From a virus (lineage: Duplodnaviria > Heunggongvirae > Uroviricota > Caudoviricetes), in IMG/VR virus record IMGVR_UViG_2617270947_000016: a stretch of 50,545 bases of DNA; one strand, 5' to 3'. Both the position numbers and the translations under genes were made by a program. The notes under the pieces were generated by a model. It was not told the origin of the DNA. It did no database searches and saw only the letters and a list, made by a program, of their open reading frames with translations. Positions 22,282 through 30,486 of this stretch are shown piece after piece (the first letter of the stretch is position 1; each line of letters starts with the position of its first letter).

Positions 22282-24193
22282 TCACTCCTCCGGACAGCTT
22301 CGCTGCCAGTTCTTTAAGGGTTGGCCGGGTCGTCTCTTCTTCCCGGGATTTTGCCAGTACAGCCAGATCAAGCTGCCAGCGTTGCACGGACACACGTAAT
22401 GCCGCGTAGGCATACACCAGGCAGTCCAGCGCTTCGTTACGCCGCTTTTTGTTATCCCACAGCAGACGCATCTTTCCTTTTTCCCACTTCTCCACAAGCT
22501 CTTCCGCGACCAGTTGCTGCGCCTCTGTCTGCGAAAAAATCTCCGGATCATCAGGAAAACGGATGGCATACGACGTGGCTTCATCCACAGGCGTGGGATC
22601 GGCTTTCATACGGGCATAGAGAATTTCTTTTGCGGTGTCCGTCCCCACTTCACACAGATACACGCCCCGCTGATTGCGGGTTTTCGGCATGGTGATCACC
22701 GGCTTGCCATAGACAGATGCGCCTTTTACCGGCAGCACCCGGAAAACACCGTGTTTTTTTGACCTCTGATAAACGATTTCGCCATCGATCCCCCCGGTGT
22801 CCCAGCAGACACGGGAAATAGTCATTTCGGTTCCGTCTGCATGGCGGTATTTTTTGTTGATCGCCGCATCCACACGTAACAGCGTCTCTTCCTCATCGGG
22901 ACGCCCCATAATGATGATTTTATCCACCAGAAAGGCTTCCTCTCCCGGAGCCCATCCCCAGACATACATCTCAAAACGGTTTCGCTGCGAGTCAATGCCC
23001 GCCGTCAGATAAACCACCCGGGCAGGCACCGCCGCCGTGTAACGCACAACCTTATCCATCAGTACCTGGTGATCGAGTTTTTCGCCCACAGCCTCTTCCC
23101 AGGTCTCGCCCAGCGTGGTGTTCACAAAGGTTTTCAGGCCGTTGGGATCTTTCAGTGCATCCAGCCAGTCATAGACAATCTGTACCCAGGTGGTGAACGG
23201 ACTGTACGCCGTCCAGATATGGAAAGTGATGGAGCGCGGCGGCGGAATTTCATCACCCCGGGCGCTGAAAAACATCAGGCCGTCACGGGTCCACATGCCC
23301 GTGTTTTCACAGATCCACCGCCCGTTACTCTGGTCAAGCTCAGACTGATGGATCACACAGCCATGATGCTCACAAAGGTAGAAAACACTTTCTGGCTTAT
23401 TCTTCTCCCACTTAAGACCGAAAGGCGAGGCATCATCGCCAAATTTCAGATACTGCTCCTCCCCACAGTGCGGACAGGGCACATAAAAACGCATGAAGTG
23501 TGCCGACTCGTTAGCGGCTTTTTCGATCTGGCAGGTGCCTTTGATTTTAGGCGTCGAGCCGCGAATGGATTTGGGCCATACAGAGCCCTCAATACGTTTA
23601 TCCCCAAGCAGGGTTGGCGAACCCTCTTTTTCGACATCCGGTTCGAACGAGGAAAGTTCGTCATAGCAGACCACGTCCACGGATTTTTCACGGTAGTTTT
23701 TAGCGGCAGCCCCGCCCAGGCACCAGAAGCCCACGCCCGATGAAAAACGTTTCAGCGTGAGGGTATTATCACGATGTTTACGCCCAAACCACGGTGCAAG
23801 ATCGAGTAAAACCGGCACATCCCTGATCGTGGGTTCCACATGAGATTTCATAAAATCTTCAGCAGCAGAATCCGTGGGCTGGAAAAGAAGGCTGTTGCGT
23901 GATTTATGCTCAATAAAATAAGCCTCCACTCCCAGCAACATCTTTGTATAACCAACACGGGCAGATTTAATCAGATTAACAGTGCGGATCCGGTCATTCC
24001 CCATGCTGTTCATGATGGCAACCTGAAACGGCAGTGTTTCCCACCGCCCCGGGGTGTAAGATGACTCTTTCGGAAGGTAATAATGTCGATCTGCCCACTG
24101 AACTGTCGTCAGAGGGACAGGAATTTTTAGCGCAAGGAGGCCGGTTGCTATCGCTCCTGCAGAATTAGCCGCCCTCAGTTCGTCTGAAATCAT
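22265..24193 (-). CDS. A: Terminase large subunit A
   Basis: Blocks [33 protein letters not shown] match lambda A; start chosen at MISDELR (RBS AGGTGG), overlapping Nu1 by ~29 nt as in lambda. Confidence 0.93.
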
Positions 24194-24713
24194 CAATCCA
24201 CCTGCGCACATTCTCACCGGCTTCAGAAGCCACATCGGATGCTTTCGCGATTTCAGTTTTCACAGCATCAAGATGTACGGGTGATATATCAGGGTATTTA
24301 CGCTGCAGTGTCTGAGGGACACGGACAAGGATCCCTGATATATTCTGTGCCACTCGCTGAAAGATGTAGGTAAATAACTCCGTCTCGAGGACAAGGCCTT
24401 CCTCACGAGCATTTTTCAGCTCCTGTGCATCGGCCTGTGCCTTCGTCAGTCGGTAACGTTCGTAATCAATGGTGCCGGGCTGAAGGTCTGATTCGCTGGC
24501 AGCCCTCAAATCCTCGATCTCTTTACGGAGTTTTTCGTTTTCAATATCAGCTTCCCTCTGCGCATACCACTGAATGGCAGCAGTTGTATCAAAAACTGAT
24601 TCAGTCCCTTTCCCTCCACCAGAAACTAGTGGTAACCCCTGACTCTGCCAGGCGGTGATGGTCCTGACATCAACGCCAAAAATATCGGCCAGTTTTTTCT
24701 TATTGACGTTCAT
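24165..24713 (-). CDS. nu1: Terminase small subunit Nu1
   Basis: 182 aa; [19 protein letters not shown]...IENEKLR matches lambda Nu1. Confidence 0.92.
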
Positions 24714-24882
24714 ACACTCCCCCGGGAACCAGAAAGGATCTGAAAATGGCGTTTTCTAACAAAAACAGCCTTTGTCAGATCCTTTTATATTTTTAAAATT
24801 CTATTGATAATCAATCAGTTAAAAAGAAGAAGAACGGATCTGATTTTTCCCTAAAAATTTTCATAAATAGCGAAAACCCGCG
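24714..24882 (-). promoter_or_regulatory. cosB-equivalent terminase binding region between cosN and Nu1
   Basis: Position relative to cosN and Nu1 and strong similarity to lambda left-end sequence. Confidence 0.5.
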
Positions 24883-24894
24883 AGGTCGCCGCCC
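24883..24894 (-). other. cosN cohesive-end sequence (minus strand GGGCGGCGACCT)
   Basis: Reverse complement of 24871-24894 reads GGGCGGCGACCTCGCGGGTTTTCG, identical to the lambda left end as recalled. Confidence 0.85.
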
Positions 24895-25100
24895 CGTAAC
24901 CGGTCGGATCGCCGGAAAGGACCCAAGAAATGATAATGATTATCATCTATATAAGGTTTATCACAACATGTGTGTACGCCATCAAACCACGAGAAATAAT
25001 CAATTATGACGCAGGTATCGTATTAATTGATCTGCGTCAAATTAACGTAAAAGCAACTTCAGATAATACAAATCAGCAACACTGAATATGGGGAAACATT

Positions 25101-25286
25101 ATGTCATCAAAGAACAGAACCCGCAGAACAACAACCCGCAACATCCGATTTCCAAACCAGATGATTGAACAAATTAACATCGCTCTTGATCTGAAAGGTT
25201 CAGGAAACTTTTCAGCGTGGGTTATTGAAGCCTGCAGAAGAAGGCTGTCAACAGAGAGTTCGGGTATGAATTACATAATTAAGTAA
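25101..25286 (+). CDS. Hypothetical protein, homologue of the ORF at the right end of the lambda genome
   Basis: 61 aa; KNRTRRTTTRNIRFPNQMIEQINIAL...GSGNFSAWVIEACRRRL resembles the cos-proximal lambda ORF. Confidence 0.5.
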   Translation: MSSKNRTRRTTTRNIRFPNQMIEQINIALDLKGSGNFSAWVIEACRRRLSTESSGMNYIIK

Positions 25287-25909
25287 CATGGTGTTCACAG
25301 AACACGCAGTTACCGGACACATCAGTTTTCCATTCGCTCACCGGCAGTACAGGCTTCCCCTCTGACGGGATAGCCTGAAAAAATAACACAGAAAATTATT
25401 TGTTATAATTAATATAACTTACTCAAAAAAAAGCGACGAGAAAATCAGCATCAACGAACAATAAGCGCCAATACGTGATAACAAATGGCAGCCATATTTA
25501 TCTGCAGTATAAGCAATGGACAGGATAACCACACCAGAAACCGTCAGCATAAAATCCATTTGAACTTCCCCGGACAAAATCGACTCATCTAAAGATTTAC
25601 AGCTCTTTTTATTATCAATATGTTAAAAGTAAAATAAACAGATGTTCAATAACACGAATACAAAAACGTGCTGAAATTCAATGAATCCATTTCTGTGTCA
25701 TCAATTAATAGTGATAAACATCCGGCTTCTTCCACCATCGCACCGGACAGGCGACTATGAGGGGACAACGCCGCGCTCCGTTAACGCGGTAAACCCCGGT
25801 GTGTATCGTTTTTGATTATCCCCGCACACTCGCGCAGAGGAGTCTCCCTGCCGGGCTGCGGTCTCTGTTAATGAGGGAATACAGCGACGATACGGCGCAT
25901 CAACAAAAC

Positions 25910-26383
25910 TTATTTCAGGCACTGAGTGCGGATATAGTCCTGTGCCCCTTCCAGTTGCTTGTGCATCGTCATCAGCCGCTCTCTGAGGGTGAAATAATCC
26001 CGTGTAACGGTGTCTGCCAGTTGGGGGCCGGTTGCATTATCCACGCCGGAGGTGGTGGGGGCTTCACGCACGGAGCCTGGACAGGTGGCGTTGATCCGCA
26101 GGCGCTTACGACCAGCGGCAACATCAGCGCGCAGAGTTTCATTTTCAGCTCTCGCATCGGATAATTCCCTCGAGTATTTTGCATCGAGCGCAGCAACATC
26201 GCGCTGGCGCACCTGCATATCAGTAATGGTTGCGTTCGCCAGCTTCAGTTCACTGGCTTTGTTATCGCGCTGCGCTTTGTAGGTAATCGCGTTATCACGG
26301 TAATGGTCTGTTGCCATCCACAGCGCACCACAGGCCACCAGCAGAATAACGATAAACGCGGAAAGCATTCGGTTTATGTTCAC
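25910..26383 (-). CDS. Rz: Spanin inner-membrane subunit Rz
   Basis: 157 aa; [14 protein letters not shown]...DYFTLRERL matches lambda Rz. Confidence 0.88.
25972..26157 (-). CDS. Rz1: Spanin outer-membrane lipoprotein Rz1, embedded in +1 frame of Rz
   Basis: Lipoprotein signal ...[10 protein letters not shown] and proline-rich [14 protein letters not shown] matches lambda Rz1. Confidence 0.7.
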
Positions 26384-26511
26384 CCCAGCAACCCCGACGA
26401 AGACAACATCATCCAGGCCATGGAAAGAAAAAGAGCAACCAGCATTAGTGAAAATGAAATGCCGACAATTACACAGAGGATCTTCGCCAGCGTTATGAGT
26501 TTGTCTGACAT
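26380..26511 (-). CDS. Hypothetical 43 aa single-TM peptide, translationally coupled to Rz
   Basis: Strong RBS GGGAGG 7 nt upstream of ATG; stop overlaps Rz start (ATGA); hydrophobic core. Confidence 0.4.
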
Positions 26512-26525
26512 GCTTAATCCTCCCT

Positions 26526-26708
26526 TCACGATTTCAACGCAATGACCAGTTTTGCCAGCCCATACAGCATCGGGGACACAGCAACACCGACCGCCACCCA
26601 CTTAATGGCAAAAGCCAGTGCTCTGCTGATGTCATCAGTTACAGGCGCTTTCAGTTCAAGGCCATTTTTCATAGTCAACCTCAACAGAATTCGTTTATAC
26701 TTCGCCAT
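26526..26708 (-). CDS. Hypothetical 60 aa protein with basic N-terminus and C-terminal TM segment
   Basis: RBS AAGGGAGA before ATG at 26708; sits between endolysin terminator and Rz. Confidence 0.4.
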
Positions 26709-26740
26709 GTTCTCCCTTGCCTTACTCAAGGTCAGAAACA

Positions 26741-26775
26741 CAAAACCCCGCTTGGTGCCAACAAACGGGGTTTTT
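26741..26775. terminator. Hairpin with U-tracts on both strands downstream of endolysin
   Basis: CCCCG...CGGGG stem flanked by A-run and T-run. Confidence 0.4.
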
Positions 26776-26864
26776 ACTTTTATTCACTTACGTTTCGCCA
26801 GTTCGCAGGATTTCGTGTTATCCGCCCGCGTGGCCATACCTTATTTTTCAGCAAAATATTCTGC

Positions 26865-27398
26865 TTATCTGTCGATTCCCCAGCACGCCAGCGCGCTCTC
26901 CTGGTCACGACGGGATACCTGACCATAACAGTTATTTGAGCGGATACGGCAGTCTCTGCCACCGTCCTTAATCCACCAGCGAATCGCCTCACACGCTCCC
27001 CTGCGATCACCTGCATTAATTCGTTTATAAAACGTCGACGGAAAACACTTACCGGGGCCAATGTTGTACGGACAGAATGACGCGATCCCCGCTTTCTGGG
27101 GTTCACTCAATGGCACTCTGATGTTTTTCTCCACCCATGCCAGCGCCTTATCACGCTCAATGGCGTTAACCCGGTCGCATTTTTCCTTCGACAACTTCAT
27201 GCCCGGAACGACAGGTTTGCCATCCACCAGGATGGCACCGCGGCAGATGGTCCAGATACCCGCGCCATCACGGTATGCCGTGGTGTGGTTACCTTCCTTT
27301 TCATCCAGAAACTGGTCGAGAATGTCAGGCGCAGGCGCACCAGCGGCAATCAGCGCCAGAACGGCAGCCGACAGGCCGTATTTGATTTTGGTGTTCAT
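26865..27398 (-). CDS. R: SAR endolysin (lysozyme, phage 21 R-like)
   Basis: 177 aa; Gly/Ala-rich N-terminal signal-anchor-release segment; catalytic region with E...D...T spacing resembling R21. Confidence 0.85.
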   Translation of the reverse strand: MNTKIKYGLSAAVLALIAAGAPAPDILDQFLDEKEGNHTTAYRDGAGIWTICRGAILVDGKPVVPGMKLSKEKCDRVNAIERDKALAWVEKNIRVPLSEPQKAGIASFCPYNIGPGKCFPSTFYKRINAGDRRGACEAIRWWIKDGGRDCRIRSNNCYGQVSRRDQESALACWGIDR

Positions 27399-27523
27399 GG
27401 ATATTTATCAGGATTTATCGGTTCCGAATCCCTGGATATGTTAAGTCTTCAGCCCGCCAGTGGTGGGCACTGGCGTAAACTCAACAATGCGAGATGGCTG
27501 CCTCGCAAAGATAAGGAACAGAT

Positions 27524-27799
27524 ATGAGTGAAGAAAATAGCAAAGAGAATACAGCACTTTTTGACAGAATTTTTACTCTTGAGTTACAGGTCGGTTTTCT
27601 TCTCCCAAAGATAATCAAAGCAATGGATGCACTAAGTAAAAATAACGCTGTGTCAGATTACCTGATCGCCGAAATGGAACATCTAATTAAAGAAATACCA
27701 AAGACAGTTGCTCGTGATGATAAAAGATTCCTCAAGGCTGCTGAAGATGCTCTTTCAACAGTGAAGCGCAGCTTAGATGCGCCGCGCGATCAAGAATAG
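27524..27799 (+). CDS. Hypothetical protein on the strand opposite the lysis genes
   Basis: 91 aa ORF in visibly AT-rich DNA; RBS AAGGA; fills gap between R and upstream ORF; terminator downstream. Confidence 0.4.
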   Translation: MSEENSKENTALFDRIFTLELQVGFLLPKIIKAMDALSKNNAVSDYLIAEMEHLIKEIPKTVARDDKRFLKAAEDALSTVKRSLDAPRDQE

Positions 27800-28262
27800 T
27801 TTCTTTCATTTCATCTGCTGCAAGCACCTCATTTTTTGTTGGGGTGCTTTTTTTCAATTCAGCGATATAGCACTCCAGTTTTTCAATGCGTGATTCAATA
27901 TCATCGTTTTCTGACCGCAATGCCGTCGGTGGCGTCTTCAGAGAACCAGTAATTATTCCCGGTAGTTTTCCTCTGTAGGTTATCAACACATCCTGCGCCT
28001 CTAAAATTACGGGGCGCTTTTCCGGCAACGGACCATCCCCTTCACATAACCCGGCAGCAACATCCATGAAAAACTGCTTCGCCTGCTTTTTCGCCTCAGC
28101 TTCGTAAAACTCCAGCGTGGCATCTTCAGTACGGTCAAGACTAATCGCCACATCTGGCAACAACAGTGACGGATACCCACCAATTTCCAGTGCCACAGTA
28201 ACAGTAATCTTATCCGGGTAATTATTTATCCCTTTAACAACCAGTTCGTATTTTTTCTTCAT
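27732..28262 (-). CDS. Hypothetical protein inserted between holin and endolysin
   Basis: 176 aa ORF starting 5 nt after holin stop with RBS GGGGAGAG; no family recognised. Confidence 0.5.
   Translation of the reverse strand: MKKKYELVVKGINNYPDKITVTVALEIGGYPSLLLPDVAISLDRTEDATLEFYEAEAKKQAKQFFMDVAAGLCEGDGPLPEKRPVILEAQDVLITYRGKLPGIITGSLKTPPTALRSENDDIESRIEKLECYIAELKKSTPTKNEVLAADEMKETILDRAAHLSCASLLKEHLQQP
27823..27854 (+). terminator. Candidate intrinsic terminator for the plus-strand ORF
   Basis: AGCACC...GGTGCT stem followed by TTTTTT. Confidence 0.35.
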
Positions 28263-28266
28263 CGCT

Positions 28267-28482
28267 TTACTCTCCCCGCGCCGCCTTACGCCGGTCCTCT
28301 CTGATTTTGAAATACAGGTTAGTCAGATATGTCAGCAGCCCAAACAGCAGACTCCCCAGCACGCCTATTGCCGCCCACTGAGACGGGGAAACCCTGTCCA
28401 GCAACTGCAGGAACCAGTAGCCCGTTCCCACCGCTGACGTGGTGTATGACACACCTGTTGTGATTTTTTCCATCTGGTACAT
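28267..28482 (-). CDS. S: Class II holin (pinholin, phage 21 S-like) with dual-start motif
   Basis: C-terminal [46 protein letters not shown] matches S21-type holins; starts MYQMEK (two Met); ORF-track N-terminal extension not used. Confidence 0.85.
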
Positions 28483-28632
28483 ACCCCGTCTCCCGTTATC
28501 CGGAAGCTGACAACAATAAAAAAAGCCACCAGTTAAGTACTGATGGCTCTGATAACTCATGCAGGCATCTCAGACGACCCACTGACACTACCGGTGAGTT
28601 TAACGATACCTTCCATTTGGCTGGCTCACTTT

Positions 28633-30486
28633 TTATGATGATGCCGGTGCATTTATCTCCAGCACCAGACTTTCTATCTCAACGCCATACGTTGCATTTT
28701 TGGTAATATCCGTCAGCGTCAGTGCATTTAGTCCCACTGTCAGACTGTCTTTTATGACCTGGAATGCCGGGCCAGCCACTCCATTCAGTTTCGGAGTAAC
28801 CGTGGCACTGCCGGCGGTGAACACCAGCTCCAGCGTCTGCCAGTCGTTACTGTAATTCCCGAACTCGCCCAACTTTGTGTTTCCGGCTTTCTTGTGATGC
28901 ATCAGATTCAGTTTGCCGTCTGTGGTCTGGGTGAAGAACGACATCAGGAACGGGTTACCAGTCCCGGTCATCGCCACGACGTCAGGTAACGCTACATCGG
29001 TATACAGATAAATTCCCAGACCGAACTGGTTGTTGGTCAGTGCGCCTGACAGTCGAAACTTACAGCTCAGTCTGCCACCCCGTGTCAGCAGGGAGACTGC
29101 GTCATCCACCGGGCGCGTCAGGGACCAGGCTTTATTGCTCTGCTTGGTGATCTTAAATACACCATCTGACAACTGAATTCCGCCATTCTTAATGCTCCAG
29201 CCCTGCGCAGCAGCATCTCCGGCTGTCGGCAACAGGGAGATTGTGCGTACGGATGCATCTTCAGACGGCCCCGATGGCGTGTCGCCGCCGGGCGAGGGTT
29301 TGATTTCCGGTGCCTTACCACTGATGAAGGCTGAGGTGCGCCCGGCTGCGTTCAGAATAGCGGTTGCCATACGATCCGGAATAATGCTCCTGCGCGCCCA
29401 TGAACTGAAATGTGTCGGGCGGTTTGATGATACCTGGTTTCCATTCGTTCTCGATGCCGCACCGTAATATCCTGATGCCGGAATATCCGGATCTTCTGCC
29501 GGTGCGTTAGTGGCGGTATTGACGCCGTTACCGTCTGTCATGAAGGGCACAAAATAAACGCCCTCACTCTCCCTGTTTTTATACCCTCCGTACACGGTGT
29601 CGTACTGGGTAGCGTATGTATTTTTCCAGTAATACGTCGTGTCACCACAAATCCACGGTACAACTGCAGCACTGCCGCCATGGCACTGCGCGTTAAATCC
29701 GGAAAGGTCAGTACGGAACTGCTTCAGCATGGCCGTGAACAGGTCCGGTTGCTGTGCGTAGGTGGCAGCGCTCATGTCAAATTCGCCCTGCATCCAGCAC
29801 ACCGCCAGCAACACATTTTTCGGGTTCTTCTGTAATGCAGCTTTAGTGCGCGCAATCAGGTCCTGATATAGCGGTTTACCCACACCCCAGCGTGCCGAAT
29901 CCTGGCTGGCCCCCGCGTCCGCACTGAATGTCCCCTCCGCGCCCTGGGTGAATGCCGAACCACCACGACAGCATGGTACCAGCAGGATCCCCGCGTTATT
30001 CGGGATATACGGGAGCAGTTTTTTGGCAATATGTAAGCCCTGGCCGACACAGCCGTACTGCCCTTTGCTCAGGTCTGCCTTCGGATGATTCAGCGTACTC
30101 ATATCCTGCACATCATGCAGACAGTGGTCAGCCGGGATGATGTCGTTATACGTACAACTCTCTCCACCCGGAGTTACCGTGCTGCGGCGCGCCAGCTGTT
30201 TAATGCGCGGATCCGGAGCATCGTAAGAATCCGGTAACGGAAGCCCTTCACCGTAGGCCATGCCGTTGGACTGTCCGGCAAGCACAACCACGTAGAACCA
30301 GTCCGGCTCAGATGAAGGGCCGACCTGTGGATCTCCTTCAATAGCCACCGCCTGCATCAGTGTGTACGGCGTAATGGCAACCGGTCCGCCATATGGCTGC
30401 CAGCCCTCTTTCAGTTTGTGTGTCAGCTTTTCCGCAAGGTCTGACGGCGACGCCGCCCTGACAACATCATAGTGTTTAAATGCCAT
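28633..30486 (-). CDS. nanS: Prophage sialate O-acetylesterase (NanS-p-like; DUF1737 N-terminus plus SGNH/SASA esterase domain)
   Basis: 617 aa; MAFKHYDVVRAAS... N-terminus and VVLAGQSNG esterase motif; located between tRNA cluster and holin as in Stx-type prophages. Confidence 0.8.
   Translation of the reverse strand: MAFKHYDVVRAASPSDLAEKLTHKLKEGWQPYGGPVAITPYTLMQAVAIEGDPQVGPSSEPDWFYVVVLAGQSNGMAYGEGLPLPDSYDAPDPRIKQLARRSTVTPGGESCTYNDIIPADHCLHDVQDMSTLNHPKADLSKGQYGCVGQGLHIAKKLLPYIPNNAGILLVPCCRGGSAFTQGAEGTFSADAGASQDSARWGVGKPLYQDLIARTKAALQKNPKNVLLAVCWMQGEFDMSAATYAQQPDLFTAMLKQFRTDLSGFNAQCHGGSAAVVPWICGDTTYYWKNTYATQYDTVYGGYKNRESEGVYFVPFMTDGNGVNTATNAPAEDPDIPASGYYGAASRTNGNQVSSNRPTHFSSWARRSIIPDRMATAILNAAGRTSAFISGKAPEIKPSPGGDTPSGPSEDASVRTISLLPTAGDAAAQGWSIKNGGIQLSDGVFKITKQSNKAWSLTRPVDDAVSLLTRGGRLSCKFRLSGALTNNQFGLGIYLYTDVALPDVVAMTGTGNPFLMSFFTQTTDGKLNLMHHKKAGNTKLGEFGNYSNDWQTLELVFTAGSATVTPKLNGVAGPAFQVIKDSLTVGLNALTLTDITKNATYGVEIESLVLEINAPASS

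Follow-up and report, generated by a model that had tools for sequence, protein, structure and literature searches.

Introduction

In phage lambda, the endolysin gene R is followed directly by the spanin gene Rz, which overlaps the R stop, and in phage P2 the gene for LysA lies between the endolysin gene K and the spanin genes lysB and lysC. LysA is a membrane protein of about 140 amino acids (aa) with four transmembrane domains (TMDs); it is non-essential and affects lysis timing. We analyzed a 50,545-nucleotide (nt) stretch of viral DNA (IMG/VR record IMGVR_UViG_2617270947_000016, Caudoviricetes; the whole stretch is hereafter the window) in which two small open reading frames (ORFs), ORF1 and ORF2, lie between a lysozyme-type endolysin gene and Rz. 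Both were found to be real protein-coding genes, and we class them among the small membrane proteins that phages encode as accessories of their lysis cassettes. As to their role, we tentatively propose that they are membrane-active peptides with an accessory, non-essential part in lysis, which they would modulate in a generic way, ORF2 in addition coupling the translation of Rz. A sequence-only reading of this DNA had reported two small ORFs with strong Shine-Dalgarno sequences (SDs) between endolysin and Rz; the ORFs and their coordinates were correct, on the minus strand, and its comparison with the lambda order agreed with established knowledge. The elements concerned were as follows.

26865..27398, minus strand: endolysin, a lysozyme of 177 aa with its TAA stop at 26865-26867 (PF00959, E 1.3e-23; Prokaryotic Genome Annotation Pipeline (PGAP) 'lysozyme', WP_001092910.1)
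26742..26774, no strand assigned: hairpin (terminator scan and folds on both strands)
26526..26708, minus strand: ORF1, 60 aa (ORF list; PGAP WP_001151823.1; phrog_1115/4493/3246)
26526..26672, minus strand: possible short ORF1, 48 aa, from a putative start at Met13
26380..26511, minus strand: ORF2, 43 aa (ORF list; PGAP WP_001280932.1; phrog_4906)
25910..26383, minus strand: Rz, the i-spanin (Pfam PF03245, E 7e-47), with its likely start at GTG 26383

The SD of ORF1 was AAGGGAGA and that of ORF2 was AGGGAGGA, 7 nt 5' of the ATG. Like P2 LysA, ORF1 and ORF2 are membrane-protein genes between endolysin and spanin that are dispensable for lysis in related phages; unlike LysA, they encode single-helix peptides, and they have no sequence similarity to it. 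The phage Mu protein gp25, a 'releasin' (DUF2730) that reportedly has an N-terminal TMD and a cytoplasmic domain, is similarly a small membrane-tethered protein of a lysis cluster with a signal-anchor-release (SAR) endolysin, whereas ORF1 and ORF2 had no DUF2730 match and occurred also with endolysins that are not of the lysozyme type (GH108 and M15). In dual-start antiholins (lambda S107/S105, S21 71/68) the extension is 2-3 residues. ORF1 resembled these in having two possible in-frame starts, an SD for each, and a longer form that is more positive, but its extension is 12 residues, it is not a holin homologue, it has no charged C-terminus, and the holins nearby are unrelated.

Two further kinds of prophage gene invite comparison. 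Classical lambdoid morons, among them bor, lom, and HK97 gp15 (Juhala et al. 2000), carry their own promoter upstream and a terminator downstream. ORF1 and ORF2 share with morons a variable presence among close relatives, small envelope-protein products, and a location at a module junction; unlike the classical ones, they had no detectable promoter, and their hairpin lies upstream. The hokW-sokW type I toxin-antitoxin system of Shiga toxin (Stx) 2 prophage Sp5 encodes a small membrane toxin that assists lysis and phage release under antisense RNA control (PMC8621323). The locus described here likewise encodes small prophage-borne inner-membrane peptides, although assistance to lysis is known for hokW-sokW and would be expected here only by inference; neither a Hok/Gef match (Pfam) nor a Sok-like RNA match (Rfam) was found, and the antisense RNA of this locus is only predicted.

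Coding status of ORF1 and ORF2

Short ORFs were frequent in this region (51 of at least 25 aa within 4 kb), and the presence of an ORF alone was insufficient evidence of a gene. ORF1 and ORF2 stood above this chance background because of their conservation, their codon-position bias, and a published ribosome-profiling (Ribo-seq) signal. Selection was analyzed across 187 fetched loci. ORF1 was represented by 31 distinct DNA variants, with variable sites distributed 12/3/22 over codon positions 1/2/3, and its ratio of nonsynonymous to synonymous polymorphism (pN/pS) was 0.32 in its own frame vs. 0.48 and 2.23 in the other frames. The 38 DNA variants of ORF2 had 25/19/34 variable sites at the three positions, and pN/pS was 0.35 in its own frame vs. 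0.90 and 1.64 in the others. ORF2 was full length in 166 of 177 copies, and in Stx phages, where its ATG had changed to ATA, the start was replaced by a new ATG one codon upstream. ORF1 relatives down to ca. 50% identity, and a distant ORF2 relative at 63% identity, kept both length and hydrophobic pattern. Conservation among relatives, on which the sequence-only reading had staked its prediction beforehand, was thus clear.

Both ORFs were called as hypothetical proteins by PGAP/RefSeq, and identical copies of ORF1 and of ORF2 were each present on ca. 1000 or more contigs, under no names other than hypothetical or membrane protein. Each matched PHROG families over its full length: ORF1 phrog_1115/4493/3246 (E 2.6e-42, residues 1-60) and ORF2 phrog_4906 (E 2.1e-23, residues 1-43), all annotated as 'unknown function'. 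Expression data were available for a homologue: in E. coli O157:H7 Sakai, XECs191 was reported as translated on the basis of RIBOseq, and its predicted product lies in the inner membrane with a single transmembrane (TM) segment; the ORF had a transcriptome value of 30 and a translatome value of 12.6 reads per kilobase per million mapped reads (RPKM) and a ribosomal coverage value of 0.43 in lysogeny broth (LB) (Hücker et al. 2017, PLoS One, PMC5597208). XECs191 was found to be an ORF2 homologue, 72% identical, and together with BP-4795 ORF50 and phi191 gp04 it belongs to a set of direct homologues (ca. 72-79% identity) located immediately 5' of Rz. These differ from the window ORF2 in following ant, not ORF1, and in starting a few codons earlier (M(M)GWLMISDK...). 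No ORF1 peptides were found in the Sakai Ribo-seq supplements.

Purifying selection, annotation, and the Ribo-seq signal of an ORF2 homologue all indicated that ORF1 and ORF2 are genuine small membrane-protein genes of the lysis cassette, as had been proposed. They are not new, being present in databases as hypothetical proteins, one homologue having published Ribo-seq support.

Protein features and family membership

ORF2 had one strong TM helix at about residues 11-29 (Hessa sum -3.8 kcal/mol), in agreement with the single TM segment first assigned to it. Since D3, K4, and K10 precede the helix and the short Ser/Gly-rich C-terminal tail that follows is uncharged, its topology is probably N-in. 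ORF1 had been described as having a basic N-terminus and a C-terminal TM segment; the basic N-terminus was upheld, and the segment, formed by the last ca. 25 residues, was only marginally hydrophobic and of the tail-anchored type. Its best 17-mer gave a Hessa sum of +3.7 kcal/mol, near that of the SAR segment of the window endolysin (+3.2), whose N-terminal segment is Ala/Gly-rich and weakly hydrophobic, as is typical of SAR endolysins. The AlphaFold2 (AF2) model of ORF1 comprised a basic amphipathic helix at residues 2-14, a loop, and a long helix at residues 23-59, with a mean predicted local distance difference test (pLDDT) score of 76.

The last 35 residues of ORF1 were nearly invariant and the first 12 variable. 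Met13 was also nearly invariant and had its own GAGG SD; in locus L097, GGAGG was kept before Met13 although the residues upstream differed. The 48-aa form was the start chosen by many gene callers, and ORF1 may possibly have two products, of 60 and 48 aa, the longer of which would add four N-terminal positive charges.

Judged by profile, the ORF1 family is narrow and without a characterized member: a search of 1.84 billion representative proteins returned only 21 relatives, and all 12 of those retrieved were small ORF1-like peptides. No ORF1 relative was confirmed in GTDB species-representative genomes. Neither ORF had a family in Pfam (E <= 0.1), NCBIfam, or PADLOC, nor a meaningful match among PDB sequence profiles, and neither accession searches of the literature nor searches of main texts for peptide strings returned anything; a search for spanin inhibitors and releasin was dominated by unrelated 'releasing' matches, and the paper on the 'Cryptic Bacterial Microproteome' did not mention prophage or lysis. 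No holin family was matched in Pfam, NCBIfam, or named PHROGs, and no type I toxin family (Hok/Gef, Ldr, TisB, Ibs, ShoB, and others) in Pfam or NCBIfam. Neither ORF matched the releasin domain DUF2730 in Pfam (E <= 0.1), and the releasin architecture was absent, the hydrophobic segment of ORF1 being C-terminal and ORF2 having no soluble domain. No spanin family was matched, and the i-spanin architecture was absent as well; ORF2 has a TMD but only ca. 14 residues beyond it, where a long, largely coiled-coil periplasmic domain (at least ca. 90 aa) is needed. We also considered ORF2 as a remnant of an Rz N-terminus and rejected this, as it bore no likeness by eye to lambda Rz and its frame is under selection.

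Distribution and genomic contexts

The 601-bp region was present in 982 of 5426 complete E. coli genomes, and the module of hairpin and ORF1 in 1044 of the same 5426, about one in five (at least 80% coverage in both cases). ORF2 was found in 276 phage records, mostly unannotated, including 933W, Min27, and BP-4795. The arrangements were counted in the 187 loci, a sample biased by the fetching procedure:

lysozyme-hairpin-ORF1-ORF2-Rz: about 90 loci
GH108 endolysin-hairpin-ORF1-ORF2-60-aa lipoprotein, without Rz: 38 loci and 5 partial
lysozyme-ant-ORF2-Rz (933W, Min27, BP-4795, phi191, and others): about 27 loci
Salmonella lysozyme-hairpin-ORF1-Rz, without ORF2: 4 loci
M15 endolysin variants: 4 loci
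ORF1 alone, after SASA/DUF6645 or DUF4376 genes: 7 loci

In this census ORF1 mostly followed an endolysin gene, whether lysozyme, GH108, or M15, and ORF2 always lay immediately 5' of Rz or of the 60-aa lipoprotein gene (lipo60), with an overlap or a gap of 4-8 nt. The two ORFs usually occurred together, though not always. Their partners varied, comprising S21-type holin with lysozyme, HP1-type holin with lysozyme, holin_8/3_7 with GH108, and M15, and they occurred with Rz or without any Rz. Both were restricted to temperate lambdoid phages and prophages. K-12 Qin had neither ORF1 nor ORF2, its rrrQ and rzpQ being adjacent, and because lambda, Qin, and many Rz-bearing phages lack both, neither ORF is needed for lysis.

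The ORF2-Rz junction

The stop of ORF2 overlaps an in-frame GTG of Rz at 26383 (GGG GTG AAC ATA AAC CGA ATG), giving GTGA; the overlap had first been read as ATGA. The start assigned to Rz by PGAP is ATG 26368 (152 aa), 11 nt past the ORF2 stop. In other Rz alleles the protein begins MNRVLCVV..., its ATG lying 7-8 nt past the ORF2 stop TGA, and the GTG start would give MNINR..., with Asn and Arg likewise kept N-terminal to the membrane segment. Because MNINR parallels the MNR of other alleles and the stop and start overlap, GTG 26383 is probably the real Rz start, the RefSeq start being five codons too short, and Rz translation would be coupled to the termination of ORF2. The window-type allele had no good SD before either Rz start. 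The packing here is tight, and the translational coupling to Rz proposed from the sequence was plausible as stop/start coupling.

Proposed role and alternative explanations

We propose that ORF1 and ORF2 are separately mobile genes for inner-membrane proteins in the late (lysis) operon of lambdoid prophages. The N-terminus of ORF1 would be basic and cytoplasmic and its C-terminal anchor weakly hydrophobic, and ORF2 would be a single-pass peptide. A promoter scan of 25800-27600 returned no promoter-like site on the minus strand, and because no sense-strand promoter was found, both are probably expressed together with the lysis genes, from anti-terminated late transcripts that run through the hairpin. 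Such read-through would place both peptides in the cell at the time of lysis. Ribosomes ending ORF2 would re-initiate at the overlapping GTG of Rz, and the peptides would shift the timing or efficiency of lysis through membrane integrity or the proton-motive force, without binding any one holin, endolysin, or spanin. A role as a specific antiholin or spanin accessory, which the sequence-only reading had entertained, was not borne out: with three holin families, three endolysin families, and a variable Rz among the partners, and no family match, a partner-specific role (antiholin, releasin-like, or spanin-binding) is unlikely. The generic lysis-modulating role is our preferred reading, put forward as a tentative one that falls somewhat short of probable.

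Several observations weighed against it. Rz relatives were present in 706 phage records vs. the 276 with ORF2; lambda-type records were not among the ORF1 or ORF2 matches, and many phages with a related Rz lack both ORFs. A few prophages carried a frameshifted ORF2. The Ribo-seq signal of XECs191 was weak, came from uninduced cultures, and may be confounded by prophage multi-mapping. The charged C-terminal tail typical of holins was absent (ORF1 ends VIALKS and ORF2 SSSGLLG). At Stx-type junctions Rz had its own SD, so that coupling is not universal. Finally, ORF1-like genes were found away from lysis genes, beside tail-fibre-type (DUF4376) and SASA/DUF6645 genes, which suits a moron better.

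The main rival to generic lysis modulation is accordingly that ORF1 and ORF2 are morons: passenger genes occupying a recombination hot spot, of benefit to the lysogen or the phage in a way that has nothing to do with lysis. Superinfection exclusion would be one such benefit, and HK97 gp15 and P22 Sie are examples of it at the inner membrane. The patchy, mosaic distribution fits this explanation, as do the exchange at one site with ant or with other small TM ORFs, the autonomy of the hairpin-ORF1 module, which turned up also beside DUF4376 and SASA/DUF6645 genes, and the confinement to temperate lambdoid phages and prophages. The RNA and Ribo-seq signal in an uninduced lysogen, low though above zero, would be expected of a moron, and so would presence and absence among close relatives, lambda-type records and K-12 Qin being without the ORFs and ant or other small ORFs taking their place in relatives. 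However, a moron would be expected to bring a promoter, and no sense-strand promoter was found in 25800-27600; the hairpin is upstream of ORF1, not downstream; ORF2 runs into Rz and is fixed to the 5' end of Rz or lipo60; and PADLOC gave no match. On balance we consider the moron explanation unlikely, though the first among the alternatives.

The hairpin and a candidate antisense RNA

The hairpin has a stem of 9-13 bp and a 7-nt loop, and in the terminator scan a 13-bp stem was followed by TTTTGTGTTTCTG. On the sense strand an A-tract lies 5' and a T-tract 3', making the hairpin, first reported as a terminator after the endolysin, terminator-like on both strands. The hairpin always accompanied ORF1, while its upper stem and loop varied by lineage (Salmonella, GH108, M15, SASA, and tail-fibre contexts). 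In L097 and L105, the T-tract of the antisense strand was better than that of the sense strand. Substitutions that leave a G·U wobble on one strand and a C·A mismatch on the other were divided: the common variant and the L006 type favored the sense strand, and L013/L026 and L034 the antisense strand. Two further elements may be placed on the strand opposite ORF1:

26672..26701, plus strand: candidate sigma-70 promoter, antisense to ORF1 codons 3-13 (promoter scan; hypothetical)
26708..26786, plus strand: predicted antisense RNA of ca. 80 nt over the ORF1 start codon and SD, ending at the hairpin (fold; hypothetical)

The candidate promoter was the one promoter-like site in 25800-27600, with TAGTCA, an 18-nt spacer, and TATACT; the match was 9/12, and one site was found vs. 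1.4 expected by chance. Its -10 element, TATACT, was kept in modules down to 50% aa identity, a conservation confounded with that of the K-Y-K and L-T-M codons, while the -35 element varied (TTGTCA, TGGACA, TTGGCC). Between the window and Salmonella locus L094, codons 3-18 differed at 1 of 48 nt and codons 19-60 at 29 of 126. The fold of 26706-26790 (plus strand) had a free energy of -21.5 kcal/mol (z -2.8). An Rfam search of 24000-29500 at E <= 1 gave two chance-level matches only and no toxin-antitoxin or phage RNA family; a sub-threshold match lay at 26710-26784 (plus strand; E 0.58).

These features would suit a type I-like module in which ORF1 is the toxin and the ca. 80-nt antisense RNA keeps leaky translation of ORF1 silent until it is overwhelmed by late transcription. 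Such a module would resemble symE/SymR and P22 sar/ant in its layout. ORF1 is small, membrane-directed, and mobile together with the hairpin; the A-tract 5' of the hairpin in every context would serve as the T-tract of an antisense terminator; and the promoter-like site, its retained TATACT, the near identity of codons 3-18, and the predicted fold would all fit. Nevertheless, the promoter match was at chance level and its conservation confounded, no antitoxin RNA in Rfam or toxin family in Pfam was matched, the wobble pairs did not favor the antisense strand, the 25800-27600 scan gave no promoter for the toxin, and the ORF1 antisense-promoter sequence was absent from the EDL933 transcription start site (TSS) supplements. 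We therefore hold a type I module to be improbable. Bolder still, and very doubtful, is an extension in which the hairpin-ORF1(-ORF2) unit would be a self-contained, antisense-RNA-guarded membrane-toxin cassette that has entered the late operons of many unrelated lysis cassettes and triggers or boosts lysis independently of the holin by collapse of the membrane potential, influencing the release of Shiga-toxin phages, and in which ORF1-ORF2-lipo60 might substitute for spanin function in GH108/M15 cassettes without recognizable Rz/Rz1.

For ORF2 alone, a further explanation is that it matters mainly as a translated spacer, delivering ribosomes to Rz after insertions had parted Rz from R, its peptide being incidental. 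The overlap of lambda Rz with the R stop fits this, as does the GTGA overlap where the window-type Rz starts have no good SD, and ORF2 keeps its place next to Rz irrespective of whether ORF1, ant, or another small ORF precedes it. The peptide itself, however, shows purifying selection (pN/pS 0.35), its TM substitutions being conservative, ORF2 also precedes a different gene, lipo60, and Stx-type Rz has its own SD. A role mainly as a spacer is highly improbable. That ORF1 and ORF2 arose by chance in a non-coding spacer and were over-called by pipelines might seem to follow from the frequency of short ORFs (51 of at least 25 aa per 4 kb) and the absence of a Pfam or NCBIfam family, but own-frame purifying selection, strong SDs on both ORFs, the compensating change that restored the ORF2 start codon, homologues of 50-65% identity that retain length and hydrophobic pattern, and the Ribo-seq signal of an ORF2 homologue effectively refuted it.

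Neighboring genes and variant cassettes

All genes of the cassette in the window read on the minus strand except one ORF of 91 aa. The remaining features were:

28267..28482, minus strand: S21-type (class II) holin with the MYQM dual-start motif (Pfam PF04971, E 2.3e-32; PGAP 'class II holin family protein', 216 nt)
27732-28262, minus strand: DUF1327/YdfR-like gene
27524-27799, plus strand: 91-aa ORF, phrog_18136 ('unknown function'), between the DUF1327/YdfR-like gene and the endolysin
25972..26142, minus strand: Rz1, the o-spanin lipoprotein, in the +1 frame inside Rz (lipobox and Pro-rich mature part in the translation of ORF 25972-26199)

Rz1 would start at MKLCAL. The 91-aa ORF overlaps the 3' end of the DUF1327 gene; in the 100%-identical E. 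coli genome record (L001), the annotation instead has the YdfR-family gene as a truncated pseudogene and, after it, a gene of 104 aa on the other strand.

In the GH108/M15 cassettes (L101-L103, L107-L147, e.g., L102:1100-3000; L086:1019-2840), hairpin-ORF1-ORF2 is followed by lipo60, ORF2 being absent from L086. Lipo60 is a lipoprotein of 60 aa with an LVGC lipobox (phrog_7528, 'unknown function'); in L052 and L162 it lies after Rz. The downstream regions of L086 and L102, both inspected in detail, showed no Rz/Rz1-like gene, and an Rz query had no match near ORF2 in any GH108/M15 lipo60 cassette; phages with such cassettes may be without a canonical spanin. ORF2 with lipo60 as a minimal two-component spanin was rejected, as the two combined have too few periplasmic residues.

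A segment of ca. 90 nt after the endolysin stop (26776-26864, minus strand; AGCAGAATATTTTGCTGAAAAAT...GGCGGATAACACGAAATCC) was conserved in the window and 933W-type phages and partly in Salmonella prophages, with counterparts at L085:1647-1740, L094:2810-2890, and L102:2990-3020. In L102 its first ca. 25 nt recur past the lipoprotein gene, and the segment looks like a recurrent recombination joint. A 17-codon mini-ORF within it was discarded, its frame being broken in L084.

Salmonella ORF1 (L094:2975-3003, L096) carries a 26-nt insert that creates an upstream ORF of 8 codons, MCREVCSL, whose TGA overlaps the ORF1 GTG start as GTGA, the arrangement seen between ORF2 and Rz in the window. In phage vB_EcoS-569R3 (L084:612-1180), the order is lysozyme, a small TM ORF (phrog_6632), ORF2, the C-terminal half of ORF1 (GTGA-coupled), an ORF1-like fragment, and Rz; the N-terminal part of its annotated 71-aa 'TPR_REGION' ORF was dismissed as merely the hairpin read as protein. 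Some contigs encode fusions of ORF2 to the C-terminal part of ORF1 (P0093, P0112). In the Salmonella remnant prophages L105 and L106 (3236-3373), an ORF1-like gene lies ca. 600 bp from a Hok/Gef-family gene, with an integrase gene close by in L106.

Significance

For annotation, ORF2 is missing from many phage records, and the Rz start of the window allele is probably GTG, not the ATG of PGAP. The ORF2 homologue between ant and Rz is unannotated in 933W (NC_000924.1, ca. 27438-27570) and Min27 (NC_010237.1, 29117-29248), and also in the Ss-VASD RefSeq record and most deposited Stx phage genomes (many LC6xxxxx and LC7xxxxx).

ORF1 and ORF2 are among the commonest uncharacterized genes of E. coli prophage lysis cassettes. 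If they do alter the timing or efficiency of lysis, phage burst and the release of Shiga toxin would be affected, and a generic, partner-independent class of lysis modulators would be added to the holin-endolysin-spanin scheme.

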